A stretch of DNA of 14,251 nucleotides from Candidatus Hermodarchaeota archaeon. Lineage in GTDB: Archaea > Asgardarchaeota > Hermodarchaeia > Hermodarchaeales > Hermodarchaeaceae. Positions 1 through 14,251 of this stretch are shown here, piece after piece. Positions within the stretch are counted from its first letter, which is position 1, and every line of letters begins with the position of its first letter. The notes under the pieces are model-generated. The model was not told the DNA's origin. It made no database searches and saw only the letters and a list, made by a program, of their open reading frames with translations. A program made the translations under genes and the position numbers. The stretch spans positions 1 to 14,251 of the forward strand of contig JAEOUH010000077.1 in assembly GCA_016839365.1 (NCBI GenBank). The letters run 5' to 3'.

Positions 1-627
1 CAACTCCAAAAGTTAAGAGAGCAGCGAGGTTCCCACAGAAATATCGTGCCACTAGAGGAGCTGCAGCGTCGATTTCGCGAGTTGGAATGGAAACAGCAAA
101 CCACTTCATTATCAGTGGAAGAAGAGAGAGCTTTGCTAGAGGAGATGGATGGGTTATCAAAGGCAATGGAAACCGCTCCAAAAAAGGAGACTGTACCCAA
201 TAATCAGTCTGAAGAAATGGAGCAGCTTTGGCAAGAAATACAGGAAACCCGGGACCGAGCCCAAGAACATCATAAAAAGATGATTGCATTGGTGGAGGAA
301 GCTCAACAAACGCATCAAAGTATGGTTCAATTATCCCAAGGACTTGGACCAGCACACTCTGAAATTGATGAAGCCCATGAAATGTATGTAAAATGCCTCC
401 AAGAAGCAGATGAGATGCGAAACCGATTAGAGGTACTGAAAGACCAAGAAAGGGATTTGAAAACCAAGTTGAACACAATTCGACAGGATCGGCAATCTGC
501 CCGTAAAGCCCAAGAGAAAGCAGCATTGGAGAAACTTGCAGAACAGGCCCGAGCTAAACAGGAGTCCGGTCAGAAGCTGAGTTTACAGGAGCTCCGTGCC
601 CTTATGGAATCAGACGGGCTGAAATAG
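1..627 (+). CDS. Archaeal coiled-coil protein (COG1340-like), 5'-truncated by the window edge
   Basis: Frame 1 is open from base 1 (QLQKLREQRGSHRNIV...) to TAG at 625-627. E/K/Q/L-rich heptad pattern; the 'ELEWKQQTTSLSVEEERAL' segment and 'GQKLSLQEL' C-terminus resemble the archaeal COG1340 family (recognised from memory). Confidence 0.75.
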   Translation, partial: QLQKLREQRGSHRNIVPLEELQRRFRELEWKQQTTSLSVEEERALLEEMDGLSKAMETAPKKETVPNNQSEEMEQLWQEIQETRDRAQEHHKKMIALVEEAQQTHQSMVQLSQGLGPAHSEIDEAHEMYVKCLQEADEMRNRLEVLKDQERDLKTKLNTIRQDRQSARKAQEKAALEKLAEQARAKQESGQKLSLQELRALMESDGLK

Positions 628-644
628 CGTTTTTCTTGGACTTG

Positions 645-1658
645 TTAGAATGAACGTTGATAGATGAAATCAACAAGCGCCTTGAGTAGTTTCGTGACCT
701 CTTTGTTGGGAAACAATTCAATTGATTTCTTAGCTTCGTTGACGAGTTCTTTCGCTCTGTCTTTAACTATGCTGCTAGCGTCGGTTTGTTTCAGCAAGCC
801 GATTACTTTTTTCACATCGGATTCTGTGGGAGTTTCAGAACGGAGGACTCGAAGAACATAATCACGATCATCGGTTGACAAGAGTTGCAGAGAGTGTAAA
901 ATGACAACATTACCAAGTTTATGTTCATAGATATCCTTACCCAGTTTTTTACCGAGTTTTTCTTCTTCTGCAAACAAGTCTAACACATCATCTGCCAATT
1001 GGAAGGCGATTCCGGCCTTCCAGCCAAATTCCCGTGCAGCATGTTGGAGGTCCTTTGATCCATTCGCGCAGATAACTCCCACCTCACAAGCCGCCCGAAG
1101 TAGAGCTGCCGTCTTATACCCAATCATCCTTTCGTAATCCTCGAGACTGACTTCGCGGAAGCGGTGTTTTTCAGTATAATCTTCATCGCTGGGAAGCTGT
1201 TCGAACAGTACATCCAGGCGTTCTCCTTCGACTAATTCACGAATTGTATCAGCTATTATCCGTGAGATTGCTTTGTGGTTAGGGGATTGAAGAGAGCCTT
1301 CTTCGATGGCTTCGCGGTAATGTGTTGACGCCAAAATTCCAAAATTCAGACCGTATTTAGTCCATGTCGTGGGGAGATTTCTACGAACATCGGCATCATC
1401 AATGATATCATCTAGAATAAGCGAATAATTGTGAACGAGTTCTATTGCAGCGGCTGTTGAGAGGGCATCTTCCATCTTACCTCCAGCAGCTTCGCAAAAT
1501 AGAATTGTGAGCGCGGGACGTATGCGTTTACCACCAGCCTGTACTTGGTGGAACACCACCTCTTGGAAATCGTTTGATGCACCAGTGGCGAGAAGCTCAA
1601 GCATTTTCTTATCCACTTGAGAACCGATATCTCCAAGCACATTCAATATATCAGACAC
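645..1658 (-). CDS. idsA: Geranylgeranyl diphosphate synthase (short-chain trans-polyprenyl synthase)
   Basis: GKRIRP, FARM DDIID..VRR, KTA and SARM DDVLD motifs. Aromatic Tyr at -5 of FARM, as in archaeal type I GGPPS. GTG start preceded by GGTGA. Confidence 0.93.
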   Translation of the reverse strand: MSDILNVLGDIGSQVDKKMLELLATGASNDFQEVVFHQVQAGGKRIRPALTILFCEAAGGKMEDALSTAAAIELVHNYSLILDDIIDDADVRRNLPTTWTKYGLNFGILASTHYREAIEEGSLQSPNHKAISRIIADTIRELVEGERLDVLFEQLPSDEDYTEKHRFREVSLEDYERMIGYKTAALLRAACEVGVICANGSKDLQHAAREFGWKAGIAFQLADDVLDLFAEEEKLGKKLGKDIYEHKLGNVVILHSLQLLSTDDRDYVLRVLRSETPTESDVKKVIGLLKQTDASSIVKDRAKELVNEAKKSIELFPNKEVTKLLKALVDFIYQRSF

Positions 1659-1769
1659 ATTATTTCACCAACGATTGCATGGTCAGCTCCTATGGCTTAG
1701 GATTTTAAGACTTTTCCTAACCAGCCCTCAAAGGAATATACCTATTCCTCTTCAATATCGCAAGTCTTC

Positions 1770-2669
1770 CTATTGCCCAAGACCTCGTCGTTTAGCTTGG
1801 AGACAAAGAAAAGAGGTGACTATTCTCGCGGCTGCAATGGCAGTAATACCTTGATCGTATTGCGGAGCCACTTCGGTGATATCAAAAATCATAGCCCGAG
1901 GAGCGATTACTCCAAGAATGGTCAGCAGTTCTGATGTTGTTAATCCGCCAGCTTCAGGATTTCCAACAGCTGGGGCATAAGCAGGATCAAGAACATCCAT
2001 ATCAATGGAAATGTAGATTGGAGGTCCGGGAGGGATGGCATCATTGATTCTGTGAGCAATTGTAGTTGCACCTTCTTTTCGGATTGCATTACACGTATAG
2101 AAGGTGATTTCCTGTTTGTTAGCGTATTCGATTTCTTCTTTTGACACGGCGCGAATACCGATTTGAATAAGGTGATCAGGCCCCAGTTGTTCGACGATAC
2201 GCCGTTGAACACAGGCATGAGAAAACTCTTGGCCATTGAACTTGTCGCGTAAATCCATATGGGCATCAAATTGTAACAGGACAATGTCACGAGGAAGCGC
2301 ACGAACCGCAGCCAATGTGAGAGTATGTTCTCCACCCAGCAAGACGGGAATCCTCTCACTCTGAATGATTTGCGACACCACGGACTCTACTCCCCTAAGC
2401 ATACTTTGAACCGTACCAGATTCAATATTCACATCACCGATATCAGCGATTGGTAGTAGAGCGGCATCAGCAGCGATTTCTTCTTGGAGACAATAACTTT
2501 CAATCGCTTGTGAGGCAGCTCGAATAGCTGCAGGACCTTGTTTTGCCCCCTGACGGTAGGTGCTGGTTTTATCAAAAGGAACTCCGAAGACAACAAAGGT
2601 AGCAGATGTGGAGTCCACTTGAGCGCCAAAAAAGGTGTTGACTACAGGTATGACACCTTGCATGGTCAT
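1770..2669 (-). CDS. speB: Agmatinase (ureohydrolase family)
   Basis: GVPFD..TY..GA..GP..IR, GGEHTLT, DAHMD, SHAC and DMDVLDP..AP.V..PE.GG motifs. Confidence 0.93.
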   Translation of the reverse strand: MTMQGVIPVVNTFFGAQVDSTSATFVVFGVPFDKTSTYRQGAKQGPAAIRAASQAIESYCLQEEIAADAALLPIADIGDVNIESGTVQSMLRGVESVVSQIIQSERIPVLLGGEHTLTLAAVRALPRDIVLLQFDAHMDLRDKFNGQEFSHACVQRRIVEQLGPDHLIQIGIRAVSKEEIEYANKQEITFYTCNAIRKEGATTIAHRINDAIPPGPPIYISIDMDVLDPAYAPAVGNPEAGGLTTSELLTILGVIAPRAMIFDITEVAPQYDQGITAIAAARIVTSFLCLQAKRRGLGQ

Positions 2670-2729
2670 GTTAGTCCCTCAATGGAACTGAGCGTAAAAC
2701 TGCTATTTGGGTCTTCTCGTCCCCAGATT

Positions 2730-3953
2730 TCAGATGATATATTTTGGAAGTTTTAAATCAAGATCAGAAATTCGAGTTTTAAGAGTTGAGGGAGTATGAG
2801 TTTCGAAATAGAGAGCTTTGATGAACTCATCTGTGAGATTGGCTTCCTGAGCTGCCTTATAGAACCCCCGGACCAACCACGCCCCTACCAGGTAGGTGTA
2901 TCCGTAGGGTCCCCAAATAGAATCAGTCATAAAAGGGATACGAGCCTCAGCGTATTCAGTTTCATAAGCACCCATATCTTTGAGATAATTGACGACTTCG
3001 GTTTCGCTGCGTTGTTCTTGTTGAATCATAACAAGGGCATTGATTCCAACAGCTCGTCGTAATTGCATCAAATGGGTGGAAACCGTTTCGGGTTTCGTTA
3101 ATGGTCGGATTGAACTTAGTATATCTGTTCCAGCCTCAGCTAAACCTTCCGCGATTGTACATTCAGGAGTGTTAATGATGGCGATAGCCGATTCAAGGTT
3201 GTGCGTTCCGCTCTGGTACCCAGACTCCTGTTGAACTAGTTGGGTTTGATGCCCTGGATAGGTTTCATGGGTTACCCATTTCCAAAGAGTATACTTGCTT
3301 CGAGGAAGTGCGATGTTAATTTCTATGATTGCTCTGTAATTCCCCTGATAATGGTTATATGCACTCCATGGGGCTACTTCGACGGCGCGAAATTCGACAC
3401 CTTCCTGCTCTGGAAGTGTGAAAAGCAGCTTCTGAGTAGCCTCCCGAGCTTCCATAGCCACCTTCTCTGCTAACGGAATGATTTCAGCCCCCTTTGTCAT
3501 TGCTCGCTTTCGCCATCGAGTTGCCATAGAGGTCAGATCACCGGTCAAAACTTCATTTCGAAGGGCCCGAGAAGCTTGTTCTGTTAACTCATCAATGCGT
3601 TCGCTGGAAATCGTTACGACATCAACATCCAATCCAATATTTACTCGTTCTTGAAATGCCACGGGATCCTCTAGCCCATAGTGTACAAGAAGTTTCAAAG
3701 CATCCGATTGACGCAGCAGATAAGACCGGCGTGGCTCATCGCGGATTTGTTTTTTGACATTGACTTGAAATCGGCTAATTAATCTTAGCAAACCGTCGGG
3801 GTCAACCACAGATTTTTCAGGCTTTAGTTCTGAAGGACCAAAATAGCTGTCGACGATAATAGTATCAGGTCCAATCTCCTGCTTGAGAAAATAATCAATT
3901 TGGAATCCGATATAGATGTAAGTTTCACCTATTTCAGAAAGGCTCTGTGTCAA
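2730..3953 (-). CDS. DUF885-like putative zinc metallopeptidase
   Basis: HETYPGHQTQ, IAEGLAE and YGYTYLVG segments match the DUF885 pattern HE.xPGH..Q / EG.A / Y.xG. The TTG start overlaps the end of the upstream GTPase by 20 bp. Confidence 0.7.
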   Translation of the reverse strand: MTQSLSEIGETYIYIGFQIDYFLKQEIGPDTIIVDSYFGPSELKPEKSVVDPDGLLRLISRFQVNVKKQIRDEPRRSYLLRQSDALKLLVHYGLEDPVAFQERVNIGLDVDVVTISSERIDELTEQASRALRNEVLTGDLTSMATRWRKRAMTKGAEIIPLAEKVAMEAREATQKLLFTLPEQEGVEFRAVEVAPWSAYNHYQGNYRAIIEINIALPRSKYTLWKWVTHETYPGHQTQLVQQESGYQSGTHNLESAIAIINTPECTIAEGLAEAGTDILSSIRPLTKPETVSTHLMQLRRAVGINALVMIQQEQRSETEVVNYLKDMGAYETEYAEARIPFMTDSIWGPYGYTYLVGAWLVRGFYKAAQEANLTDEFIKALYFETHTPSTLKTRISDLDLKLPKYII

Positions 3954-4545
3954 CGCTTTTCGCCTCGGGAAAGAGCTTATCCATTAACTGCGTGGCTAAT
4001 TCTTGGAACGCCTCATTGACGTTGCGACCATCTAAAGCACTGGTTTCGTAATACTTTCCTTGAATTCGATCAGTAGCCTGTTTTGCCGCATATTCGGAAA
4101 CCTCGCGATCGTGTTTTAGATCAACCTTATTTGCTAGCACAACGCGCACGAAATCGTCCCCAAGGATAGCTTTGACTTCATCTAACCACTTGGTTTCAAT
4201 CGCAGCAGCCGAAGAAGCACGGGTTGTGTCAAATACAAAAATTACGGCATTGGATCCGGTGTAGTAGCGCTGGCGGAGAGGTTGCAATCGTTCTTGACCA
4301 CCCGTATCAAATAGCTGTAATTTCAGTTTTCGCCCCCTTACATCGACTATCTTGGTCACAATGTTGACTCCAATGCTTGGTTTGTAATCATGGTCGAATT
4401 TATTTTCAGCAAATCGGCGAATTAAGCTAGTTTTACCAACTCCCCAATCACCAACAATGACAACTTTGACGACATAACCAGCTTTGGGTGGTTTCTCTAT
4501 TTCAATCGTAATTGATTCAGCGCTGGAATTAGAGATGTCCTTCAC
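3934..4545 (-). CDS. Rab-like small GTPase (Ras superfamily; Asgard eukaryotic signature protein)
   Basis: G1 GDWGVGKT, G2 YKPSIG, G3 DTGGQE, G4 NKVD, G5 ETSAL. RabF-like segments IGVNI, KLQLF and YYTGS. No C-terminal Cys. Confidence 0.92.
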   Translation of the reverse strand: MKDISNSSAESITIEIEKPPKAGYVVKVVIVGDWGVGKTSLIRRFAENKFDHDYKPSIGVNIVTKIVDVRGRKLKLQLFDTGGQERLQPLRQRYYTGSNAVIFVFDTTRASSAAAIETKWLDEVKAILGDDFVRVVLANKVDLKHDREVSEYAAKQATDRIQGKYYETSALDGRNVNEAFQELATQLMDKLFPEAKSVDTEPF

Positions 4546-4641
4546 CTCAATAAATCACTGTACTGTAGCTTATGTAAGAGCTTTCCGTACCATATAACCT
4601 CAACTCATGATAGGGTGCTCAGAAAAACTTCGAAAAATAGA

Positions 4642-4754
4642 GAAGGAAGCGAAGGTACCTTTGGAAAAAAGGGGGAGGTTGGGGAGGGGGGAGCGAGGGG
4701 AGGGCGAGGAACGATGCGGACACAACATTACATCTATTTCCCTTCGCTTCCTTC
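4642..4754 (-). ncRNA. Candidate ~113 nt small RNA with a 14-bp terminal stem and C-rich loop
   Basis: Perfect inverted repeat GAAGGAAGCGAAGG (4642-4655) / CCTTCGCTTCCTTC (4741-4754). Minus-strand TATA box TTTAAATA at 4783-4776, about 29 nt upstream of 4754. T-rich tract (TCTATTTTT) follows on the minus strand. Confidence 0.45.
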
Positions 4755-4775
4755 ACAAAGAGCATTCGTGGAGAT

Positions 4776-4783
4776 TATTTAAA
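4776..4783 (-). promoter_or_regulatory. Putative archaeal TATA box (TTTAAATA)
   Basis: Consensus TATA sequence, correctly spaced for a start near 4753-4756. The upstream BRE match is poor. Confidence 0.4.
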
Positions 4784-4876
4784 CTCCCCAAGGGATAAGA
4801 AAAAATACGGACTCTTTTTCCTCACTTAATGACAAACCTTGCATCCCATCAGCAAGCTGAGTGTAAAGGAATTGGA

Positions 4877-5125
4877 CTACTCTTTTCGGACACTATGCGA
4901 AACCATCAGGGTCAGGGTCTCTTTTACCCCATCAGTGGGACGGAGTTTCTTGAAGATGAAGTTATTCAGTTGTTCTTCGTCAGCAACCTCGATGAGACAG
5001 AAAATGTCATGGATTCCATAGACGGAGGAAATTTCTTTCACAACTGGTAAATCTTTCAATGAATCAAATACAGTATCAGTGAGGGGTGGATCAACATCAA
5101 TAAGAATAATTGCCTTGAGGGTCAT
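4877..5125 (-). CDS. Stand-alone Lrp/AsnC ligand-binding (RAM) domain protein
   Basis: AIILIDV...V.EI..VYG.HDI..LIE......L..FI..KLR...GV.ET.TL pattern with no HTH. ATG at 5125 preferred over the TTG at 5140. Confidence 0.88.
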   Translation of the reverse strand: MTLKAIILIDVDPPLTDTVFDSLKDLPVVKEISSVYGIHDIFCLIEVADEEQLNNFIFKKLRPTDGVKETLTLMVSHSVRKE

Positions 5126-5327
5126 AGCTAGAGGCCCCAAATGATTATTATTCGCCCATTCAGTTCCTGCTAATGTTCCTTATAAGCATTCTAGCCAGGT
5201 GCTTTTCGGTCGCTTAGTCGATTGACAAATTATTGAGATAAGTATGAAAAACTTCAAAACATAAGAAGTGTATTGGGTTCTATCCTCTCTTGAAGAATTA
5301 GTACGATAGCGTCTCACACACAAAATT

Positions 5328-7022
5328 GTGGAGGGAATATACTTGACTCTAACCAAAGCTGATAAAATCGTTGTAACGTGCGGCTTACCCTATGCAAACG
5401 GTACAGCTCATATCGGTCATCTGCGCACCTATATTCCCGGTGATGCCTACGTAAGATACCTGAAACGCTATGGCTATGATGTGGTATTCTTTTGTGGATC
5501 CGACGCGCATGGAGCACCCATTGAACTTGCAGCAGAGCAAGCTGGTGTCTCACCTCAAAAGTTAATTGAAAAATACCACGCACACTTTGAAAAAATCTTT
5601 AGAAAATTAAATATTGGCGTTGATCTGTACGGGAATACAGAGGCCCCCTACCATTACAAACGCGCTCAAACCATTATCCGTACCCTCGAGGAGAATGGAT
5701 ACGTTGAAGCGCGTGATGTAGCTTTGCCATATTGTAATACCTGTCAGACATTCCTCGCTGACCGCTTCCTCGTTGGCACTTGCCCTTATTGTGGAGCGAT
5801 AGCTCGTGGAGATGAATGTGACCAAGGGTGTCAACGCTACCTTGATGCTGACCAGTTGATCAACCCCCGCTGTGTCACCTGTGGATCACCAGCCGTCAAA
5901 CGGAACGCCCGACACCATTTCTTTAAGCTCTCAATGTTCACTGATTTTCTTACGAAATTTAATAAAAGATTGAAAGGTACCGCATTAGCTCGAAATTACG
6001 CTCTGGGATGGATTCGGCAGGGACTAAAGGATTGGGGCATCTCCCGTGATTTGAAATGGGGAATCCCCTATCCGGGCGATGAGGATTTGGTTCTCTACGT
6101 ATGGGCTGAAAACTATGCAGGCTACATCTCATTTACTGAGGAATGGGCCCGGCAAACTGGAGTGGATTGGGAAGACTATTGGATTCGAGATGGGAAAATC
6201 ATCAATTTCATCGGTGCAGATATCGTATACCACCATGCAGTCTTCTGGCCTGCAATTCTCAAAGGAGTGAACTACAATACGGCCTATGCAATCGTTGCTA
6301 GTGGCATGGTCAAGGTTGAAGGGCATGGCCTCTCCAAGAGTCGCGGCTTCGTAATCGATATCGAAGAAGATATCATCAAACAGGGAATCGATTTAGATGC
6401 TGTGCGATACTACATCCTTTCATACACAGGATATACGAAGGACCTGGATTTTATTTGGAAGGACTTTCAAATCAGAGTGAATAATGAACTTGTCGGCATT
6501 CTGGGTAACTATGCCTATCGTGTTCTCCTGTTCATTCACAAACACTTCAAAAAAATCCCTCAAGGAACCCTAACAGATGAGGTCACCAGCCAGATTCGTA
6601 ATACCGTTGAAGCAATCGACAAAACATTTCATAGATTTCGATTTAAAGAAGCTGCTGATGCTGCGATGCTCCTTGCGTCGTTTGGGAATACGCTCTTCCA
6701 ACAGAGTGAACCATGGAAAACGATCAAAGAAGAAAGAGACCGTGCTCAATTTGATCTATATCAGTGCCTCCAAGTATTGAAAGCCATTACGATTCTAATC
6801 GAACCTGTTATGCCAGCAATCTCAGAAAGGATTTGGCAACAACTTGGGCAGGATGGAAACATCCATGAAGTGAAGGTGGAAGAGTGTACAGAACCACTTG
6901 TTCCAGGCACAAAACTGCCAAATCCAGAAGCGCTATTCACGAAGATAGCCGACGAAACTGTTGAAGCATTAACCTCCAGATTGAACCAACGTATTGAATC
7001 TGCTAGGGCAAAAGCAAAGTAG
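5328..7022 (+). CDS. metG: Methionine--tRNA ligase (no C-terminal tRNA-binding domain)
   Basis: LPYANG..HIGH, GSDAHG, four CxxC-type zinc-knuckle pairs, WGISRD..WG, G.DI..HH..FWPA and KMSKS-like GLSKS. The true start may be TTG at 5343, after GGAGG at 5330-5334. Confidence 0.97.
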   Translation: MEGIYLTLTKADKIVVTCGLPYANGTAHIGHLRTYIPGDAYVRYLKRYGYDVVFFCGSDAHGAPIELAAEQAGVSPQKLIEKYHAHFEKIFRKLNIGVDLYGNTEAPYHYKRAQTIIRTLEENGYVEARDVALPYCNTCQTFLADRFLVGTCPYCGAIARGDECDQGCQRYLDADQLINPRCVTCGSPAVKRNARHHFFKLSMFTDFLTKFNKRLKGTALARNYALGWIRQGLKDWGISRDLKWGIPYPGDEDLVLYVWAENYAGYISFTEEWARQTGVDWEDYWIRDGKIINFIGADIVYHHAVFWPAILKGVNYNTAYAIVASGMVKVEGHGLSKSRGFVIDIEEDIIKQGIDLDAVRYYILSYTGYTKDLDFIWKDFQIRVNNELVGILGNYAYRVLLFIHKHFKKIPQGTLTDEVTSQIRNTVEAIDKTFHRFRFKEAADAAMLLASFGNTLFQQSEPWKTIKEERDRAQFDLYQCLQVLKAITILIEPVMPAISERIWQQLGQDGNIHEVKVEECTEPLVPGTKLPNPEALFTKIADETVEALTSRLNQRIESARAKAK

Positions 7023-7028
7023 CTCTAT

Positions 7029-7135
7029 TCAGAAGCAAAATGTTGCCCGTTCTACAATTGAATAATTTCTTAGCTAATGGTTCAAACAACCTCTTATTAT
7101 GCAACTCTAATCAAAACTTGAAATGGCACAATTTG
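7029..7135 (+). repeat. Repeat copy A (A/C type) containing dif-like core GGTTCAAACAA-CCTCTTA-TTATGCAACTC at 7079-7107
   Basis: Ungapped match to 10120-10226 (91/107 identical by manual count). The core is shared with 8279-8307 and 11259-11286. Confidence 0.9.
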
Positions 7136-7187
7136 TCGTGATGAATAGAAAAACACAGCACTCAAGAGGCTTTTAGCCGGCAAAGAA

Positions 7188-8123
7188 CTAACTCGTTTTG
7201 TAAAGGTCTGTGCTCAAGTATTTTAGCCCTGAATCGTTTAGCAATGTGACTACTGTAGCCTTTGGTCCTAATGTTTTCGCGATCCTAATGGCTGCTACAA
7301 CATTGGCACCTGATGAAGTGCCTGCGAAGAGTCCTTCCTCTCGTGCTAAGCGTTGAGCCATTACCTTGGCTTCCTGTGTGGAAACTTGTATTATCTCACC
7401 AATCAAACTGGAATTCCACAAAGGAGGTATAAACCCAATACCGATTCCATCGATACCATGAGCCCCTCTGCTTCCACCAGACAAAACAGGCGATTCTTTA
7501 GGCTCAACGGCTACTATTTTCACATCTGGATTATGCTTCTTCAAAACTATCGCGGTTCCAGTGAGAGATCCCGCCGTCCCAACGACTTGTACATAGGCAT
7601 TAACCTTTCCCTCTGTTTGCTCCCAAATTTCTTCACCGAGAGCAAAATACCCGGAGATCTGGTCTTGGTTATGTAGTTGATTTGTCCAGTAAGTCTCTGG
7701 GGTTTCACTAATTTTGCGCGCCTTTTCAATCATTGCGTCAATTAATTCCTTAGTTATCCCACGTCCATGGCTCGGGATAACTGTTACTTCTGCACCTAAA
7801 GCCTGCATATGATCCAGTTTATCGCGACTAAAGGCATCCGAAGAGATTATTCGAAGTCGATACCCTTTCGCTGCACAAATAAATGCCAGCGATGTACCAG
7901 TGCTTCCCCCTGTATATTCAACTACGGTTCCACCCGGTTTCAACCGACCATCTTGTTCGGCTTTATCAATCATTGCTTGAGCCATACGATCTTTCATGCT
8001 CCCAGTTGGGTTTTCCCACTCTAACTTCACAAGCACACGGGCATACCCCTGCGGAACCACTTGCTGCAACTCTACCAACGAAGTATTCCCAATTGCGGCT
8101 AGAATATTTGTTCCTATCTTCAC
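7188..8123 (-). CDS. cysK: PLP-dependent cysteine synthase family protein
   Basis: IGNT.LV.L, KLE..NPTGSMKDR (PLP Lys), GTAGSLTG, H.I.GIG and GTSSGAN. Start reassigned to GTG at 8123 (311 aa), because the extra 54 codons in the ORF track are the antisense of repeat B. Confidence 0.88.
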   Translation of the reverse strand: MKIGTNILAAIGNTSLVELQQVVPQGYARVLVKLEWENPTGSMKDRMAQAMIDKAEQDGRLKPGGTVVEYTGGSTGTSLAFICAAKGYRLRIISSDAFSRDKLDHMQALGAEVTVIPSHGRGITKELIDAMIEKARKISETPETYWTNQLHNQDQISGYFALGEEIWEQTEGKVNAYVQVVGTAGSLTGTAIVLKKHNPDVKIVAVEPKESPVLSGGSRGAHGIDGIGIGFIPPLWNSSLIGEIIQVSTQEAKVMAQRLAREEGLFAGTSSGANVVAAIRIAKTLGPKATVVTLLNDSGLKYLSTDLYKTS

Positions 8124-8129
8124 GCAGCC

Positions 8130-8250
8130 AACCAGCTTCCTCAAAAATAAGTTTCCTAAACCTAAATATCTTATTCCAGATAAAGCAGCTGAGAAACTTA
8201 GAATCGACCTTAGCCAACGCATTGAATCTGGGTGAGTAAGAACCAAGTAA
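8130..8250 (+). pseudogene. Degenerate copy of the metG 3' end (remnant B)
   Basis: Translates to KFPKPKYL---IPDKAAEKLRIDLSQRIESG*VRTK*, versus MetRS KLPNPEALFTKIADETVEALTSRLNQRIESARAKAK*. The terminal stop is at the same position; premature TGA at 8233-8235. Confidence 0.85.
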
Positions 8251-8307
8251 CGCCGTTCAACAAAATTTCTTAGCCTGTTGTTCAAACAACCTCTGAGTAT
8301 GCATTAA
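8178..8307 (+). repeat. Repeat copy B (B/D type) with dif-like core TGTTCAAACAA-CCTCTGA-GTATGCATTAA at 8279-8307
   Basis: 8178-8294 aligns ungapped to 11158-11274 (96/117 identical by manual count). Confidence 0.9.
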
Positions 8308-8332
8308 ATGAAGACATGAAAATCTTTGAATT

Positions 8333-8908
8333 TCAGAATTCTTTACCTTTCTGATAGACTTGTTTGAGGTAATTCGTTCGGGTTGCATCATCAACAGCAG
8401 CGACTGAATAAAGGAAGAGGAAGTCAACTTCTTTAATTCCAGATTCTGTGAGTGACATTCCCAAGATGTTCTTCATAGAACCCCCCAAACCGGTAGCCTG
8501 GTAATAGGTTTCGGGGTTTCCAGTAGTAAAGATGTAGAGACCTTTCTTTTGCGTGAGAAGACCGATCATTCCTGTCTGATCAGCTTTCCAAGCAAAGCCA
8601 AATGAGAACACACGTTGAACCCAGCCTTCTAAGATTGCTGGGATGAACCATCCGAGAGCAGGACTGATAAATACTAATGCTTCAGCGTTAGCCAGTCTTT
8701 CTTGTTGCTTTTGTACTTCTTTAGGCATTGGTTTTCCCGCAAATTGCCCAAAGTCTTCAAGTTGGATGCTGGGATTGAATTTTTCAGCGTATAAATCCAC
8801 AACATCGAAGGTATGACCACCATCCTTGAGGCCCTTTGTGAAGGATTCGAGAACAGCGTGATTAAACGACTTAGGATTTGGATGCGCATAAACAACTAAC
8901 ACGTTCAT
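8333..8908 (-). CDS. NAD(P)H-dependent flavodoxin-fold oxidoreductase (Flavodoxin_2, MdaB/KefF-like)
   Basis: MNVLVVYAHPNPKSFN, V.DLY...FNP, P...W..PA.L.GW..RVF..GFA and TTG motifs. Confidence 0.9.
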   Translation of the reverse strand: MNVLVVYAHPNPKSFNHAVLESFTKGLKDGGHTFDVVDLYAEKFNPSIQLEDFGQFAGKPMPKEVQKQQERLANAEALVFISPALGWFIPAILEGWVQRVFSFGFAWKADQTGMIGLLTQKKGLYIFTTGNPETYYQATGLGGSMKNILGMSLTESGIKEVDFLFLYSVAAVDDATRTNYLKQVYQKGKEF

Positions 8909-9010
8909 GAAAAAACCACCACAATTTTTCGGTTAATGGCATCTCAACCTAAATAACTGTAAGCTTTCCACAATGTAGAAAGACATGAACTTTTTATTAT
9001 TAAGTGGTGA

Positions 9011-9529
9011 TTGAAATTGCAGATTGACCCTCAATTATTACAAACCATTTCGATATTAGTAGCTATTAGTAGTATTATTGTTGCATTCATTATTGGTGTG
9101 CGCTCGATTCGTAACTTCACTGTCTCTCGTAAGGCATCAGTGTTCATCAGTTATCAGACTCAAGCTTACAACCATCAGTTTCTCAGAAATATGACAGAAA
9201 TTATCAACGAGTGGTCATGGAAGAATTTCGAAGATTTCTGGCAAAAATACGGACCACAAACTAACCCAGAATCGTATGCCAAGTTCATTTCTGTTAGTGG
9301 GTTTTATGAGGGAATGGCAAGACTTCTTAGAAAGAATATCATCGATATTGATTTGATGCCCGTAGTCATGTCTATCGGGATCATTATGTTTTGGGATAAA
9401 ATCAAACCTATGTCAGCACAGATGGGCAAATATTTAGGCATCACGGAAGGGATAGATTTAGCTCAATTTCTCTATGATAGGGTGAAAAGTCGACAACACG
9501 AAACAAAAAATCACACTGAATTTGTATAA
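9011..9529 (+). CDS. Hypothetical membrane-anchored protein (DUF4760-like), paralogue 1
   Basis: N-terminal TM helix and WSWK...FW.KYGP..NP motif shared with the next ORF. The start may be TTG at 9017, 6 nt after GGTGA. The family name is from memory. Confidence 0.75.
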   Translation: MKLQIDPQLLQTISILVAISSIIVAFIIGVRSIRNFTVSRKASVFISYQTQAYNHQFLRNMTEIINEWSWKNFEDFWQKYGPQTNPESYAKFISVSGFYEGMARLLRKNIIDIDLMPVVMSIGIIMFWDKIKPMSAQMGKYLGITEGIDLAQFLYDRVKSRQHETKNHTEFV

Positions 9530-9655
9530 CTCAGTATTTCCCATAAAAGATGATTCGGTATCCATGAACACAGATATGATGTATGTCGTAGCATGAGATT
9601 TTTTCAGTTAGAATGACATAGATTCTTGTCTATACATTTACGGTGCGTGAGTTCG

Positions 9656-10156
9656 ATGCAGTTGCCCATTACTCTCGATCAGATTGGTATATTTATCGCT
9701 GCAATCAGCGTTGTAGTCGGTGTAATCTTAGGACTGCAATCTGCGAAGGATTGGTCCAAGGACCGCAATGCGAGTCTTTTCCTCCAGTATCAGCTTCAAG
9801 CCTTCAACACTGAATTCATGGAGAATCTAATCGAAATTAACTCATTATGGTCATGGAAGGATAATATGGAGTTTTGGACAAAGTATGGACCCGAATCGAA
9901 CCCGAAGAAGTTTGCAAAATTTTCTGTAGTTGGCACGGTTTTTGATAGTATGGGGGTTTTGCTAAAGCGGAAATACATACCTGTGGACATGGTACCGGAA
10001 TTGATGATTATTGGGATAATTTCTTTTTGGGAGAAAGTTGCACCTATTTCCACTCAACTGAGTATAGACATGCAACGGCCTCATGCTTTTGAGAATATCG
10101 AGTATCTTGTTAATGAAGCTCGGAAGCGAGATGCAACCCGTTCTAGAATTAAATAA
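9656..10156 (+). CDS. Hypothetical membrane-anchored protein (DUF4760-like), paralogue 2
   Basis: Colinear similarity to 9011-9529 (WSWKDNMEFWTKYGPESNP, MG.LL....I..D..P, IGIISFWEK). ATG at 9656 preferred, with TATA-like TATACATTTA at 9631-9640. Confidence 0.78.
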   Translation: MQLPITLDQIGIFIAAISVVVGVILGLQSAKDWSKDRNASLFLQYQLQAFNTEFMENLIEINSLWSWKDNMEFWTKYGPESNPKKFAKFSVVGTVFDSMGVLLKRKYIPVDMVPELMIIGIISFWEKVAPISTQLSIDMQRPHAFENIEYLVNEARKRDATRSRIK

Positions 10157-10226
10157 TTTCTTAACAAATGGTTCAAACAACCCCTGATTATGCAACTCTT
10201 ATCAAAACAAGAAATGCCACAATTTG
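10120..10226 (+). repeat. Repeat copy C (A/C type) with dif-like core GGTTCAAACAA-CCCCTGA-TTATGCAACTC at 10170-10198
   Basis: Ungapped match to 7029-7135 at offset 3091. Confidence 0.9.
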
Positions 10227-10547
10227 GCTTCAATATGTAATGTTATGGAACCATTCCCGTTAGTGGTAGTGCCCACCACGGAATCGCATCTAAGATGAAG
10301 GAATGGTGGATTCTCGAACTTGCCGATCATCCTATTATGAATAGTGGATAACACAAACAAGAGCTATTTACACACACTATTCCTTTCCTTGAATCCATCT
10401 AACTCAACCCTCTTCATCTGTTCCATCACTTTTTTCGAATAAATTAACCTCTGTTTTTTTATGGCTCATTGCGCCTAAAGGATTTTATACGCTCTAAATC
10501 CTATCTTAACGGGTTTTGCATAACTTAATGGAATGGAGAAAAAGATT

Positions 10548-10994
10548 ATGGGATTATTTGGTCGATTTAAAGCCCCAAAAGCGACAATCTCAGTAATGTT
10601 GAATAAGGATACATACAGCCTCAAAGAGCCCCTAACAGGGACCGTTAATGTGTCATCATCTGAAGAATTTGACGCCGATGAAGTTCGTCTTGAAATCTGG
10701 GTCAACGAATGGACCAAAGCGACCGAGAAGCAGGGTACGAAAGAAAAACCGATTACAGTAACCGCTCAACAAAACAGCGTACTCCATCAAAGCAAGAATT
10801 CCATCGGAGGGCAAATGCAATTCACCGACGGTTTTAGCGACAGTATTGACTTCAGTATCCATTTACCATCAGGAGTTCCACCCACCTATCGAAGTCAAAA
10901 TGCCCGAAATACCTGGATGATGAAAGGCGTAATTGCGGTTAAAGGCCGACCCGATGTCACTAGCCACGACATGGAAGTCGTAATAACCTACTAG
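10548..10994 (+). CDS. Arrestin-N/Spo0M/Vps26-like beta-sandwich protein
   Basis: 'ISV.LNKDTY...E.LTG.V.V.S', 'FSIHLP..VPPTY' and 'W.MKG.I...GRPD' follow the arrestin-N fold pattern. Start is ATG 10548 (MGLFGRF) or 10533. Confidence 0.72.
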   Translation: MGLFGRFKAPKATISVMLNKDTYSLKEPLTGTVNVSSSEEFDADEVRLEIWVNEWTKATEKQGTKEKPITVTAQQNSVLHQSKNSIGGQMQFTDGFSDSIDFSIHLPSGVPPTYRSQNARNTWMMKGVIAVKGRPDVTSHDMEVVITY

Positions 10995-11019
10995 TGAACC
11001 CTCATGTTGTATCATTACA

Positions 11020-11230
11020 GGGCAATTACTGTGTAGGTGAAGGCAGCCATCGAAGTGAGCAGTTCACCTCTTCTAAAATAACTGAAAACTGATGAAATAA
11101 GGATCCCGTTCCCCCTAGTATTGAATTATCCAAGCCTACTGCATTTTTCCAGAGTCTAGATGATGCAGTTGAGGAAGTTGGAACGGGCCTTAACCAACGC
11201 ATTGAATCTGGGCGGGTAAGAGCCAAGTTA
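11020..11230 (+). pseudogene. Degenerate copy of the metG 3' end (remnant D)
   Basis: Translates to DPVPPSIELSKPTAFFQSL-DDAVEEVGTGLNQRIESGRVRAK, versus MetRS EPLVPGTKLPNPEALFTKIADETVEALTSRLNQRIESARAKAK. Weaker frameshifted DNA similarity upstream (GGCAA..ACT...AGG.TG.A..CA.CCAT.GAAGTGA). Confidence 0.87.
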
Positions 11231-11286
11231 CACCATTCAACAAAATTTCTGATGCTGTTGTTTAAATAACCTCTATTATGCTAACA
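11158..11286 (+). repeat. Repeat copy D (B/D type) with 28-bp dif-like core TGTTTAAATAA-CCTCTA-TTATGCTAACA at 11259-11286
   Basis: Matches copy B at offset 2980. The core is an 11-6-11 imperfect palindrome with 8/11 symmetric arm positions. Confidence 0.88.
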
Positions 11287-11463
11287 CCTAGGCTGTTGAA
11301 CTAGGCGAGTGTTGTGGTGGACGACCCGTGTTCAAATCGTGGGTTGTTTAGAATTAGTTAACACTGTTTATTAGAAATATCAGATTTTTAAGGTTCAAAG
11401 GAGAAGGGGGTCTTATTCATCCTTTGTAGAAGGATGGATGGGAAAGTCTAGGAGATTACGTAT

Positions 11464-12360
11464 TTGGTAATAAAACAGAGAAAGTTGAGCTTTCTTCTAG
11501 TTGCAATTGCAGTGTTCTGTGTGGTGTCGATGTTGTCGCCGTTCCCGGATAGGGTGCGGGCGATGACAGTGATTACGGATAATTTCAATGACATGGACTA
11601 TGCGGGGTGGGATACCTACGGATATATATTGAATTGGACGACATCCCCCCCTAAGACGTATCTTGCGGGTTCAGCGAATTTTTCAGCTGCGGATCAGACC
11701 TTGAAGGTCACGGGACCCCTGGGCAATTACACATATTCGTCCTGGAATAATGCATACATCGAGAGCTCAGTGAGCTTTGGTCAGTGGAGCTTCGATTTGT
11801 ATGTAGTCAATACAACACTCGGTATGGGGTATGTACGCCTTATGGCGGACCACTATTATCCAGCCGAATATTATTCTGCTATTCCCGGTCCGTACATGAA
11901 TAATAGTTACGAAATTTGGTGCTACACCCGTAATTTGACTTCGTCGATTGGTTCATTCGTTGACCGGCCGATGATTACCCTTGAAAGATGGTTAACAGGT
12001 TCTGGGGATATTCGTGCGTCATATTCTGTTGGAACACCTTCGGATACTTGGACGAATTGCTGGGTTCACTTCGATGTGATTCGGAATACTACGGGGCACA
12101 TCATGGTGTACATCAACAGCACCCTCCGCATAGCAATAGGAGACAATCTTAATCCCATACCTGGGTACTTCGTGTTTTCTGGACAGAGTGGTTGGGCCAT
12201 TGATAGCGTGGTCATCTCGGGAATTTCCGCCATCCCCACCATCCCCACCATCCCTACTGAACCACCACCGGACTTCACGCTACCCTTGATTGCCATCATT
12301 GCCATCGAGCTCATCGTCATCATCGTCCTCTCCATCTTATACTTCCGGCGACGATCATAA
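11464..12360 (+). CDS. Secreted, C-terminally membrane-anchored surface protein (possible ConA/LamG-like beta-sandwich)
   Basis: Basic plus hydrophobic signal peptide ending near VRA; aromatic, beta-rich body (W.HFDV.R...G.I.VYIN); several NxS/T sequons; (IPT)3 linker; TM helix and RRRS tail. Confidence 0.8.
   Translation: MVIKQRKLSFLLVAIAVFCVVSMLSPFPDRVRAMTVITDNFNDMDYAGWDTYGYILNWTTSPPKTYLAGSANFSAADQTLKVTGPLGNYTYSSWNNAYIESSVSFGQWSFDLYVVNTTLGMGYVRLMADHYYPAEYYSAIPGPYMNNSYEIWCYTRNLTSSIGSFVDRPMITLERWLTGSGDIRASYSVGTPSDTWTNCWVHFDVIRNTTGHIMVYINSTLRIAIGDNLNPIPGYFVFSGQSGWAIDSVVISGISAIPTIPTIPTEPPPDFTLPLIAIIAIELIVIIVLSILYFRRRS
12230..12256 (+). repeat. 9-bp tandem repeat (CCATCCCCA)x3 encoding an IPT linker
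   Basis: CCATCCCCA CCATCCCCA CCATCCCTA. Confidence 0.8.
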
Positions 12361-12361
12361 T

Positions 12362-12403
12362 CAGGTGCGTGTAGGGCACCTGCCCTACCCCTTTCCTTTT
12401 TTT
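12362..12403 (+). terminator. Hairpin plus oligo-T putative terminator
   Basis: GTAGGGCA/TGCCCTAC (12371-12388), with alternative stem CAGGTGC/GCACCTG, followed by CTTTCCTTTTTTT immediately after the stop codon. Confidence 0.55.
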
Positions 12404-12617
12404 CAGAAGGAACGTTATTTAGCGCTCGCATGAGCTATGTAATATCTCCGACACCATTGGACCAAGCTTATGTTGGGTTACCTTTGTCATCTTTGGGTCA
12501 TCAGGGATTGTGTTCTCGCTTGTACAGGGATATTCAGTCAATCTTCGGGTGCATAACTTTTTACTTCTTCAATTATTTCTACACTCATAGCAATTCACTT
12601 AGGTAGGTGGATTACGA

Positions 12618-12652
12618 GCATAAGGGGTGTGTGTGCTTGAACAACAACATCA
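12618..12652 (-). repeat. Possible inverted, degenerate copy (E) of the dif-like core
   Basis: Reverse complement TGATGTTGTTGTTCAAGCAC-ACACACCCC-TTATGC versus copy D TGATGCTGTTGTTTAAATAA-CCTCTA-TTATGC. The spacer is 9 bp. Confidence 0.4.
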
Positions 12653-12701
12653 TTTCTTATCCCCGTTTTGCACCCCTAGCTAGTGTAAAGTGGTGAATAC
12701 T

Positions 12702-14251
12702 ATGGTTGGCGTTGATCCTTCAATACCCCTATCTGATATAACGAAGCTTCCTGCAAAACTCCAGCGGAAGCTTGACGCCCATGGAATTAATGATCTCGCA
12801 GATCTTTTTCTGGCAGAGACCAAACTACAGGACGCCGTCACATTAGCGACCAACACGGATCTTACCATTCGTGAAGCTCTTGAAGCCCGACAGCTTGGTC
12901 GGCGATATTTAGAAACCATTTTAGCAGAGATCACCGCCAAGCGCAAGGTCGAATCGTTGGGATTATTGTGGAAGATTCATTGGCTGTTAGGAGCTGTACC
13001 TAATGGAAATCTCCGAAACGAGCTTATCGCGCTTGAGGCTTCAGCCATTGCCACGATTCTTGAGACTTTAGAAACCACCGAGGCGGTGACGATAGAACAA
13101 ATTCTCCAGGTACTGCTTCACCGTCTCCTCATTGTTCCGAAAGCGACAATGAAGGCGGAGTTGACACAACTTGTGGAGTTTGCCGAGAAGTTTCAGCGGA
13201 GCTCCTTGCTCGCCTATCAAACAACTAAAGCAAAGGATTCGATGATGGCATTAGCCGATGAGGATGATCCCACAAAGCAGGTTGTACAGATACGAAAACT
13301 CACAACTCATTGGAAGAACCTTCTTAAGACAATGCAAGACCGCAGCCAGGAACGAGGAACCGTAATTATATCAGCACTCCTGTCAACTGATGACCTAAGA
13401 GTACTAGATATCAGCGAACGGCATTTGCAAGAACGCCTCCAACAAACCATGTCAACAAAGAAACTTCGACAATCACAGCTAAAGCACATCACGACTGCAA
13501 TGAATGCCATGTTTGATCTCCGCGATGCCTACTCTACCGCCAAACTAGCCACGCGGGCGAGCCAGATATGGTTTGAACTGGCACAAGGCAAAACCAGCAA
13601 GGCACTTGGAGATGATTTATTACGTAGTCTACGATTTGCACGTACAGCGATTTTCAATTATCGTGCACTTGATGATTTGAACGGAGCGGTCAAGCAGCTT
13701 GATTATATTATCCACGTACTTGGTGAAATCCCATTCGAACCCGCTGAACCCCTTGAGGAAGCCGTTACAAGTGCCTTCCAAACGTTAATCCGAACTATAC
13801 CACTCCTGGACCGTCCTGCAGACCAAGAATTCATTCTTCGAATCTCAAAACGGCTAGGCAGCCTCATAACGAGGTTGATGCCCAAAATCGCAGCTCCTGA
13901 AGCCCAGTCTGCTTTGGCAAAACTCCAAATCGAATTCCAACAAACAGCACTAAAACAGCTGAAGCAACTTGGGGCAACACCTGAGACCAATCAACCACTC
14001 ACCCAGGAGCTCATAGAAGCTCAATTGCGCCTAATCGAAGTTACCTCAGAAGATGAAAGAGACGCCCTCCTACGTGCAGCCGCTGAATATGCAACCCAAC
14101 TAATACCTGAGACCCACCCAACGCCGAAAATCGACGAGAAAAATCTTGAAATTATTTCCCGCATTGTACAGCAACTAGCTCAGCGACCCAAGGAAACTTT
14201 GAGTGATTCAGCACAACACCTTATGGAGAAAAGTCACAAACTCAACGAACA
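12702..14251 (+). CDS. Large hypothetical protein with an N-terminal helix-hairpin-helix-like segment and all-alpha body; runs off the window
   Basis: ATG at 12702 after GGTGA (12692-12696). Manually read as open for 516 codons (MVGVDPSIPLSDITKLPAKLQRKLDAHGINDLADLF...). Absent from the ORF track because there is no stop in the window. Confidence 0.85.
   Translation, partial: MVGVDPSIPLSDITKLPAKLQRKLDAHGINDLADLFLAETKLQDAVTLATNTDLTIREALEARQLGRRYLETILAEITAKRKVESLGLLWKIHWLLGAVPNGNLRNELIALEASAIATILETLETTEAVTIEQILQVLLHRLLIVPKATMKAELTQLVEFAEKFQRSSLLAYQTTKAKDSMMALADEDDPTKQVVQIRKLTTHWKNLLKTMQDRSQERGTVIISALLSTDDLRVLDISERHLQERLQQTMSTKKLRQSQLKHITTAMNAMFDLRDAYSTAKLATRASQIWFELAQGKTSKALGDDLLRSLRFARTAIFNYRALDDLNGAVKQLDYIIHVLGEIPFEPAEPLEEAVTSAFQTLIRTIPLLDRPADQEFILRISKRLGSLITRLMPKIAAPEAQSALAKLQIEFQQTALKQLKQLGATPETNQPLTQELIEAQLRLIEVTSEDERDALLRAAAEYATQLIPETHPTPKIDEKNLEIISRIVQQLAQRPKETLSDSAQHLMEKSHKLNE

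Follow-up and report, generated by a model that had tools for sequence, protein, structure and literature searches.

Why are two decayed copies of the metG 3' end found downstream of an intact MetRS gene in a Candidatus Hermodarchaeota archaeon, and why do these copies resemble each other more than the resident gene? Both copies, here called B and D, lie in a window of 14,251 nucleotides (assembly GCA_016839365.1, contig JAEOUH010000077.1, positions 1 to 14,251, forward strand), which is the metG locus of the 2.2-Mb genome under study, G000. B and D are probably the right-hand arms of two integrase-less cassettes inserted at a fixed site just behind metG. The locus offers a nucleotide-precise, genus-wide view of one gene-gain route in Asgard archaea.

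Genomes and Search Scope

The genus set consisted of 15 metagenome-assembled genomes (MAGs), with completeness of 72–91% and contamination of 2–7%; genomes other than G000 carry codes of the same form, such as G007. Binning often misses mobile elements. Recombinases and sites were searched for in these 15 MAGs, in GTDB representatives, in IMG/VR, and in JGI metagenome contigs. The first pattern used to collect sites was too loose: most of its 88 genome matches, and all 5 of its viral matches, were due to chance, and a 40-nt check of the collected sites was passed by members of this genus only.

B and D are Relics of the metG Tail

A sequence-only reading of the window had counted ungapped identities over 48 nt (metG 6984–7031, B 8212–8259, D 11192–11239) of 41 for B/D, 37 for metG/D, and 34 for metG/B. 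These counts were reproduced exactly, and the states said to be common to B and D and absent from metG (CGC, GGG, and GTA AGA) are present in the alignment. Homology between B and D reaches 120–128 nt at 81–82% identity (E = 1.6e-29), and in the comparison of the repeat family the metG tail is 71% identical to B and 77% identical to D. The proposed check against shuffled controls was run on local alignments of the metG tail, and the scores with D (z = 10.6) and with B (z = 5.9) were each matched by 0 of 2000 shuffles. In a search of the 2.2-Mb genome, D was the sole non-self match of the metG tail at E <= 0.001. The match of B to the resident tail alone is weak (genome-wide E = 2.1), and its homology to metG follows from D and from relics in relatives, such as that of G007 (90% over 98 nt).

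Translated in the metG frame, D reads ...DDAVEEVGTGLNQRIESGRVRAK and B reads IPDKAAEKLRIDLSQRIESG followed by a stop, where the resident gene has ADETVEALTSRLNQRIESARAKAK and a stop. B (8175–8250) and D (11148–11230) are decayed, in-frame versions of the final 26 codons of MetRS. B is 88–90% identical to the G007 relic and D is 87–88% identical to it; the G007 relic follows the same cargo gene as D does. Between G000 and G007, the relics are 87–90% identical and the third codon positions of metG 79%. This difference points to constraint or recent spread. An antisense small ORF was considered as the cause of this conservation and rejected, its frames being broken in G012 and G005.

Four Cassettes are Stacked Behind metG

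Four cassettes are stacked head to tail between metG and a conserved 1029-aa gene. The features of the locus, in window coordinates, are the following.

5328–7022, plus strand: resident metG, encoding an intact MetRS of 564 aa with its native tail (Pfam tRNA-synt_1g, 447 bits, and an anticodon-binding domain)
7023–7135, plus strand: junction 1 (site A), 85% identical over 107 nt to site C, and made up of a spacer, segment S (7033–7063, relic of a DUF4760 gene end), the core AATTTCTTA (7064–7072), and the left-end sequences of cassette 1, K (7073–7103) and E (7104–7135)
7188–8123, minus strand: cargo of cassette 1, a cysteine-synthase-like PLP enzyme (Pfam PALP, 230 bits; NCBIfam cysKM, 302 bits, under the equivalog cut-off)
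8175–8250, plus strand: relic B, right end of cassette 1, the module-borne last 26 metG codons, with an in-frame TGA (8233–8235) and a stop-equivalent TAA (8248–8250)
8264–8303, plus strand: junction 2 (site B), with the core (8264–8272) and K as left end of cassette 2
8333–10156, both strands: cargo of cassette 2, three genes
8333–8908, minus strand: cassette 2, flavodoxin-fold NAD(P)H dehydrogenase-like gene (Pfam Flavodoxin_2, 121 bits)
9011–9529 and 9626–10156, plus strand: cassette 2, two DUF4760 genes (DUF4760, 32 and 34 bits)
10124–10226, plus strand: junction 3 (site C), with S (the last codons of the DUF4760 cargo gene), the core (10155–10163), and K and E as left end of cassette 3; no metG relic at this junction
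10533–10994, plus strand: cargo of cassette 3, an arrestin-N/Spo0M-like protein of 153 aa (Pfam Arrestin_N 25.6 bits, Spo0M 23.2 bits)
11148–11230, plus strand: relic D, right end of cassette 3, a module-borne metG tail whose frame is open and whose stop has become TTA
11244–11283, plus strand: junction 4 (site D), with a worn core AATTTCTGA (11244–11252) and K as left end of cassette 4
11464–12360, plus strand: cargo of cassette 4, a 298-aa ORF with no Pfam or NCBIfam match
12541–12659, plus strand: right end of cassette 4, of type R2, and the last core ATTTCTTA (12652–12659)
12690–14249, plus strand: the neighbour gene, conserved and about 1029 aa long in relatives

The core, (CAT)AATTTCTTA, is common to five junctions that point in the same direction, and its pattern has only four occurrences in the genome, all at this locus and in one direction. 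Homology between junctions stops right after AATTTCTTA, 12–21 nt past the metG stop, so insertion neither cuts metG nor replaces its tail. In the empty state, the metG stop is followed by CCCCCTTCAGCATAATTTCTTA and then by TTGTCGTTTTGC. Every cassette starts with a conserved left end, GCCTGTTGTTCAAACAACCTCTCATTATGC, often extended by about 60 further conserved bases, and finishes with one of several conserved right-end types and the core. One of these types is a copy, about 100 nt long, of the metG tail and the bases up to the core; it duplicates the left arm of the chromosomal site and is carried with the cassette. The metG-tail relics serve as a tracer: the cassettes carry their own copy of the target flank and do not replace the gene end. 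A second type, the R2 end of cassette 4, shows 76% identity across 115 nt with the right end of a G011 cassette and with a relic in the G006 spacer. The units measure 1–3.8 kb and hold one to three unrelated accessory genes, on both strands, between arms of 60–115 nt that belong to several families. A junction was also looked for between the two DUF4760 genes of cassette 2, and none was found there.

On the far side, collinearity of G000 with G007 begins exactly at 12652, and from 12660 on the sequence is native flank and the promoter region of the next gene. Counting genomes in which it is assembled on the contig of metG, this neighbour gene bounds the array in seven genus members and in two of three members of the sister genus. 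No tRNA or tmRNA was found at the sites, and an Rfam search over 6900–12800 at E <= 5 gave two chance-level matches only.

The sequence-only reading had described a segment of about 22 nt, present in A and C, as missing from B and D. A gap of 28 nt does lie opposite it, but it does not represent a loss in B and D: in C the extra segment consists of the final ~10 codons of a DUF4760 cargo gene, and in A it is the relic of such an end. In every relative the metG tail directly abuts the core. B and D thus retain the usual layout, and it is junction A that has been altered. Junction A, with its extra S, and junction C, with no tail, fit the plain cassette model only if a deletion or a conversion between junctions is added to it.

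Small ORFs lie beside the left end in some cassettes and are absent from G000. They were considered as DNA-binding helpers and rejected, as they encode membrane proteins instead.

Occupancy of the Site and Movement of Cassettes

The insertion point is fixed across the genus: it is empty in two species, whereas in others it is occupied by as much as 7 kb of accessory genes that are unrelated to one another. In the empty state (G002 and G003), metG, the core, and the neighbour gene follow one another with nothing between. Differing cargo is found at the same nucleotide in G000 (5.7 kb), G007 (1.7 kb), G012 (7.1 kb), G009, G010, G001, G014, and G005, and relic spacers only, of about 300 nt, in G006 and G011; eight to ten genus members other than the two with the empty site have cargo or relics there. 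Relics of the same type as B and D are found beside differing cargo in no fewer than four further genomes (G007, G012, G005, and G008), and cassettes without any tail are inserted at the same core. The cargo of cassette 3 is 98% identical in amino acids to that of the G007 cassette in the same place (92.7% in nucleotides over 792 nt).

A 2.6-kb cassette is 97.65% identical in G011 and G008, which stand on separate deep branches of the MetRS tree, and it lies at different loci in the two genomes. The G011 copy occupies a secondary site between two convergent conserved genes; this site resembles the primary one, and the core is present at both ends. Judging by this identity, at least one cassette has passed between species recently.

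Which Enzyme Could Move the Cassettes?

Strands would be exchanged in or next to the core by a tyrosine-type site-specific recombinase supplied in trans. No integrase (PF00589) was found in any array, beside the five sites away from metG, or on the metagenome contigs with true sites, and no recombinase on the metG contig of G000. The site sequence did not occur near any integrase of the genus, either by BLAST or with an nhmmer profile on the contigs that have sporadic integrases. Similarly, no integrase-bearing autonomous element using the same att was found in the genus MAGs (72–91% complete), GTDB representatives, IMG/VR, or JGI contigs.

The host recombinase XerA is only a candidate for this role. 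A stronger proposal, that XerA, the chromosome-dimer resolvase of the host, acts on dif-like sites and that an element-borne integrase never existed, would make the cassettes a counterpart in archaea of Xer-exploiting elements of bacteria or of the dif modules of Acinetobacter. It concerns the enzyme alone and is compatible with the cassette explanation; we consider it rather unlikely. It accords with the lack of an integrase in or near any array or site, and with the presence of a XerA orthologue in 13 of the 15 genus genomes, including G000 (G000:C89; 265.6 bits with NCBIfam recomb_XerA_Arch, the cut-off of which is 220). In G011 and G012, both of which show cassette traffic, XerA is the sole tyrosine recombinase found in the bins. 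Moreover, homology breaks off within the spacer of an imperfect inverted repeat whose arms match at 8 of 11 positions at sites A, B, C, and D. However, we estimate 8/11 to be roughly chance level for such a scan, and in the empty chromosomal site the arms match at no more than 7/11 anywhere and at 5/11 across the core (manual count). The conserved arms of the cassettes are long (60–115 nt), more like lambda-type attP arms, and the MAGs are incomplete, with mobile elements often escaping binning. The Thermococcales dif sites, as quoted from one study (PMC2958812), have few or no mismatches between their arms.

There is some small chance that the locus is a recombinase-free platform that collects genes behind metG, with interchangeable long arms, one family of which is a captured metG tail, and that its cassettes are inserted, excised, and moved between species by XerA or another chromosomal enzyme. 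If so, the platform would be to archaea what Xer-driven modules are to bacteria, and genes would be gained by a route distinct from integrons and integrase-bearing islands. The site, the arms, and the host XerA are defined well enough for a direct recombination assay.

Origin of the Relic Allele

In the tail tree, built on an alignment of only 75 columns, B and D fall together with the relics of G007, G012, and G005 in a single clade, the support for which (85/82) is not strong. This clade falls inside that of the resident tails of G000, G007, G012, G009, G014, G003, and G002. In the AU tests, most of the groups were defined once the sequences were already known. A group of B, D, and the resident G000 tail was rejected (p = 3.8e-5), which upholds the earlier claim that B and D derive from a shared allele of metG that is not the resident one. 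Also rejected were the grouping of the G007 relic with the G007 resident tail (p = 0.004), of the G005 relic with the resident tails of G005, G001, and G004 (p = 0.011), and of B, D, and the G007 relic with the resident tails of G000 and G007 (p = 0.022). The relic allele is closest to the resident tails of G012 and G009.

Among resident alleles, the tail tree agrees with the gene-body tree, and the last 78 nt of the G000 gene show ordinary divergence (9th to 51st percentile of all windows); resident tails are therefore vertical, and that of G000 is not recombinant. The idea of a recombinant metG 3' end, which the sequence-only reading had put forward for checking, was thus left unsupported.

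The same reading had allowed for either a displaced ancestral end or a donor allele. In the former case, elements would recombine inside metG and bring their own tails, the present resident tail would be the most recent donor copy, and B and D would be former resident tails pushed downstream, in the manner of islands in tRNA genes or at the 3' ends of genes. This is distinctly improbable, although the relics do lie downstream of metG in the same direction with one left boundary 26 codons before the stop, and although G007, G012, and G005 have a relic at the last junction, the place to which the original tail would have been moved. The G012 relic is also inseparable from the resident tail of G012 (AU p = 0.215), so this one may be a genuine displaced copy or a source copy. 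The G005 relic, however, lies at the last junction beside the flank, where a displaced native tail would belong, and is of the ...EELGTGLNQRIES... type, whereas the resident tail of G005 is of the ancestral type (...KMSTILTHRI...), common to the outgroup genus. This resident tail follows the history of the gene body, which in nucleotides is 94% identical to that of G001. The argument spans two contigs, and the neighbour gene on the relic contig shows the divergence expected for G005 (57% aa). The same contrast between relic and native tail is seen in G008 on the 30 nt available. Displaced ends are further opposed by the rejected grouping of B, D, and the G007 relic with resident tails, by the unremarkable resident tail of G000, and by the use of the same core by tail-less cassettes. 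Overall, the tail comparison favours relics of a donor allele carried on the modules, rather than displaced resident ends or a local duplication.

With such cassettes, exchange at the core would leave metG and its native tail intact, and the cassette's copy of the tail would land beside the following junction. In a circularised cassette, the tail or R2 arm would be joined through the core to GCCTGTTG... A left boundary common to all relics (TCCAGAT) suggests that the tail was captured a single time, probably by imprecise excision from a chromosome like that of G012 or G009, and that it was then kept as a functional arm. The first acquisition of the tail by a cassette is a matter of conjecture.

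Other Readings of the Array

That the locus is an integron or an integron-like cassette array (CALIN) is very improbable. Integrons have been reported in Archaea (PMC9668308), Asgard archaea included, and integrons and CALINs, like the metG array, collect genes as small cassettes: short accessory-gene units with a repeated site between them and no local mobility gene. Unlike them, the metG array lacks the attC hairpin, and its four sites fold no better than shuffles on both strands (z from -0.84 to +1.27). In addition, no IntI is adjacent, the partial integron-integrase match being the XerA orthologue on another contig; cargo genes occupy both strands, and what the repeat conserves is a long stretch of sequence and not a structure.

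A simple local duplication, in which B and D are decayed tandem or segmental duplicates of the metG end of this genome and no mobile DNA is involved, is scarcely credible: three copies do lie on one strand within 4.3 kb, but the nesting of the relics with the resident gene, named in the sequence-only reading as an outcome that would refute its own view, is rejected by the AU test (p = 3.8e-5), the same relic type stands beside different cargo in at least four other genomes, and the site is empty in two congeners.

Comparison with Known Systems

Elements that exploit Xer recombination at dif sites are known, including the dif modules of Acinetobacter (PMC5357621; 10.1101/2024.04.09.588662), and the metG cassettes resemble them in being small recombinase-less modules with short sites at one chromosomal locus in a host with XerA. 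The metG site differs in that it is a poor inverted repeat, only a candidate Xer site, and in its direct repeats with long arms.

A survey of Thaumarchaeota (PMC6563490) describes archaeal elements that are integrated in the 3'-distal region of protein-coding genes, some of them in tandem arrays. As quoted from that survey, these elements share with the metG cassettes site-specific insertion at the end of a housekeeping gene, flanking direct repeats, empty and occupied relatives, and a re-used site that gives rise to arrays. At metG, by contrast, the exchange point lies past the stop and the gene is untouched, and the units are 1–3.8 kb long, with one to three genes, no integrase, and long arms of several families. 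Among the targets quoted from the survey metG does not appear, and a literature search gave no case of metG as a target. Of the hallmarks of elements at gene 3' ends, att repeats with the gene end and empty sites were found here, and an on-element integrase and a crossover within the gene were not.

In bacteria, integrase-less, cis-mobilisable elements of the ICE/IME/CIME kind accrete in tandem at shared att sites, and SCC elements form composite islands behind rlmH. Stacks of att-bounded cargo, most units of which lack a recombinase and would depend on an enzyme supplied in trans, and a target-gene end within the repeats are likewise features of the metG array. It differs from these bacterial systems in its archaeal host, and no integrase-bearing parent element was found for the metG site. 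As in a CIME, the units are recombinase-less and have the core at both ends, and evidence of movement comes from the cassette common to G011 and G008.

Site Copies and Cassettes Downstream of metG

The window covers bases 1–14,251 of contig C57 in a metagenome-assembled genome of 2.2 Mb (84% complete; G000), in which metG is followed by four copies of one site (A to D) in the same direction, and by a fifth, shorter junction. The cassettes meet at the core, a short shared junction sequence that is the presumed exchange point.

Features of the window
3934–4545 (-): Ras/Rab-family small GTPase upstream of metG (Pfam Ras, 159 bits)
5328–7022: metG (MetRS; profile match)
7029–7135: site A
7073–8272: cassette 1 (right end, B)
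8175–8303: site B
8273–10163: cassette 2
10120–10226: site C
10164–11252: cassette 3 (right end, D)
11155–11283: site D
11253–12659: cassette 4
12541–12651: right end of type R2
12652–12659: fifth junction, immediately before the neighbor gene
12690 onward: conserved neighbor gene, ~1029 aa

A genome-wide pattern search found no further copies of sites A–D anywhere in G000. Sites A and C are 85% identical over 107 nt, and B and D 82% over 120 nt. The neighbor gene (12690–14249; 3507–6593 in locus L035) matches no Pfam or NCBIfam model in any of the relatives. The core overlaps a T/A-rich box ~50 nt upstream of its start, and this box is restored by the right end of every cassette.

The metG neighborhood was compared in 14 congeners (G001–G014) and four members of the sister genus. 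In G002 and G003 the site is empty: metG is followed by 12 nt, CATAATTTCTTA, and then directly the leader of the 1029-aa gene. At exactly that point, G000, G007, G012, G009, G010, G001, G014, and G005 carry inserts of 1.2 to 7.1 kb, and G006 and G011 have merely relic spacers of ~300 nt. All inserts open with GCCTGTTGTTCAAACAACCTCTCATTATGC, to which ~60 further conserved positions are often added, and close with ...AATTTCTTA; immediately past this core the junctions cease to resemble one another. The reading frame of metG in G006 (G006:C14, locus L045, 660–2355) changes near residue 300, through a frameshift or a mistake of assembly.

The cargo varies between genomes and occupies both strands. 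In the window it comprises an enzyme resembling cysteine synthase, a protein with a flavodoxin fold, a pair of DUF4760 proteins, an arrestin-N/Spo0M-like protein, and a 298-aa ORF of no known family; other genomes contribute, among others, a PHO4 transporter, an acyltransferase, an old-yellow-enzyme homologue, and a protein with a beta-lactamase fold. No integrase was found among the cargo genes of the arrays. In G014 (G014:C38, locus L037, 2787–4583), the beta-lactamase-fold gene is divided between neighboring ORFs of 136 and 431 aa, which cover consecutive portions of the Pfam model, and is probably a frameshifted pseudogene.

Origin of the metG Tail Relics

The sequence-only reading had described B and D as relics of a metG 3′ end. 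Its hand-counted identities over 48 nt were exact on recount (B/D 41, metG/D 37, metG/B 34), and the segment that it reported as present in A and C and lacking in B and D is borne out as a 28-nt stretch absent from both relics. The last 26 MetRS codons align in frame with B and D. The match of D to the metG tail is significant alone (z = 10.6 against shuffles), and D is the sole non-self match of this tail in the genome at E ≤ 0.001 (E = 0.001). Taken alone, B is weakly similar to the resident tail, that is, the genome's own metG end (z = 5.9; genome-wide E = 2.1); its homology is firm because of its match to D (E = 1.6e-29) and the relics in other genomes.

The same reading derived both relics from another metG allele, either a donor allele carried on the modules or a displaced ancestral end. 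In an alignment of 75 columns with 17 resident tails and five relics, the relics form one clade (support 85/82), nested within the clade of resident tails of G000, G007, G012, G009, G014, G003, and G002. Their highest identities are to the resident tails of G012 (71–84%) and G009 (68–80%), and their lowest to those of G000 and G007 (57–69%). The approximately unbiased (AU) test did not reject a grouping of the G012 relic with the G012 tail (p = 0.215). It did reject joining the G007 relic to its own resident tail (p = 0.004), the G005 relic to the tails of G005, G001, and G004 (p = 0.011), and B, D, and the G007 relic to the G000 and G007 residents (p = 0.022). Grouping B and D with the resident tail of G000, the outcome named beforehand as refuting another allele, was likewise rejected (p = 3.8e-5).

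The clearest case between donor and displaced end is G005. Its native tail is of the ancestral KMSTIL type, common to G001, G004, and the sister genus, and its metG body shares 94% identity with the G001 gene; yet the relic adjoining the flank, in the place expected for a displaced native tail, belongs to the EELGTGLNQRIES type. G008 has the same pattern in the 30 nt available. In addition, resident tails track the gene body, as the tail and body trees agree, and, in comparisons with five relatives, the last 78 nt of metG in G000 rank at the 9th–51st percentile of all windows by identity. Together, the tree, the AU tests, G005, and the resident tails therefore indicate that the cassettes bring the tail with them and that metG retains its own end. 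A single capture of the tail, perhaps by imprecise excision from a G012/G009-like chromosome, may have preceded its spread, which fits the start point common to all relics (TCCAGAT).

Right-End Families and a Probable Mosaic Cassette

Four types of right end were distinguished.

Right-end families
metG tail: B, D, and relics in G007, G012, G005, and G008
R2, starting GGTGCATAACTTTTTACTTCTTCAATTA, unrelated to metG: 12541–12651; G011:C2 105539–105653; G006:C14 2591–2677
Third type, ending ACACAT: G009, G011, G001, and two metagenome contigs
S: DUF4760 gene end

In G006, R2 alone persists in the spacer between metG and the neighbor gene. Between the arrestin-like gene and relic D, positions 11017–11138 share 84–85% identity with the DNA directly preceding the G012 relic and with metagenome contigs L168 and L176; this stretch resembles the decayed end of a different cargo gene, which would make cassette 3 a mosaic. 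At junction A, a 31-nt relic of the DUF4760 gene end separates the resident tail from the core; at junction C this gene end is present and the tail absent. This layout falls outside the plain model; it would be accounted for if a previous first cassette had been deleted or if one junction had been converted by another.

Candidate Recombinase and Known Systems

A site-specific recombinase would act in trans at the core. An XerA orthologue is present in 13 of the 15 genomes of the genus and is a minority candidate for the enzyme. Other tyrosine recombinases are sporadic in the genus, and no site sequence was found near them. As inverted repeats the sites are weak, with 8/11 arm positions matching at best; no attC-like folding was seen, and no integrase-bearing parent element was found in genome, virus, and metagenome collections.

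Cassettes that lack an integrase and accumulate at a common att site are known from bacteria. Archaeal precedents exist for integration at the 3′-distal part of protein-coding genes and for tandem re-use of sites (PMC6563490). Compared with these systems, the metG-locus cassettes are small integrase-free units with long interchangeable arms, their exchange point lies past the stop codon, and the host group is different. They are also distinct from aloposons (PMC8813620) and archaeal integrons (PMC9668308), and a literature search turned up no publication that names metG as a target of this kind.

History and Movement of the Cassettes

G000 and G007 have the arrestin-like cassette and its relic in common; the cassettes are 92.7% identical over 792 nt (metG, 89.8%; neighbor gene, 89.2%), and D and the G007 relic are therefore probably orthologous. 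The site of G003, the next relative, is empty. Cassette 4 was subsequently inserted behind D in G000. B resembles the G007 relic (90%) more than it resembles D (81%). Between G000 and G007 the relics are 87–90% identical, and metG third codon positions are lower (79%), which points to constraint or to exchange at a later time.

Evidence that cassettes move comes from G011 (G011:C2, locus L048, ~5540–9345) and G008 (G008:C303, locus L055, whole contig), two genomes from separate deep branches of the MetRS tree: they share, at 97.65% identity over 2643 nt, a 2.6-kb unit that carries a P-type ATPase and a 106-aa membrane ORF. In G008 this unit stands behind a tail relic, and in G011 it occupies a secondary site flanked by two conserved genes in convergent orientation. 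The ends of the G011 unit, TTTCAGAT|AATTTCTT... and ...AATTTCTTA|TTCTGTTTC, are close to the primary site. Several contigs break at the site or within a few bases of it (the ends of G005:C59, G001:C18, and G003:C105, and the start of G008:C303); such breaks are expected for a repeat that recurs in different surroundings and suggest that the site occurs in more than one context in those populations.
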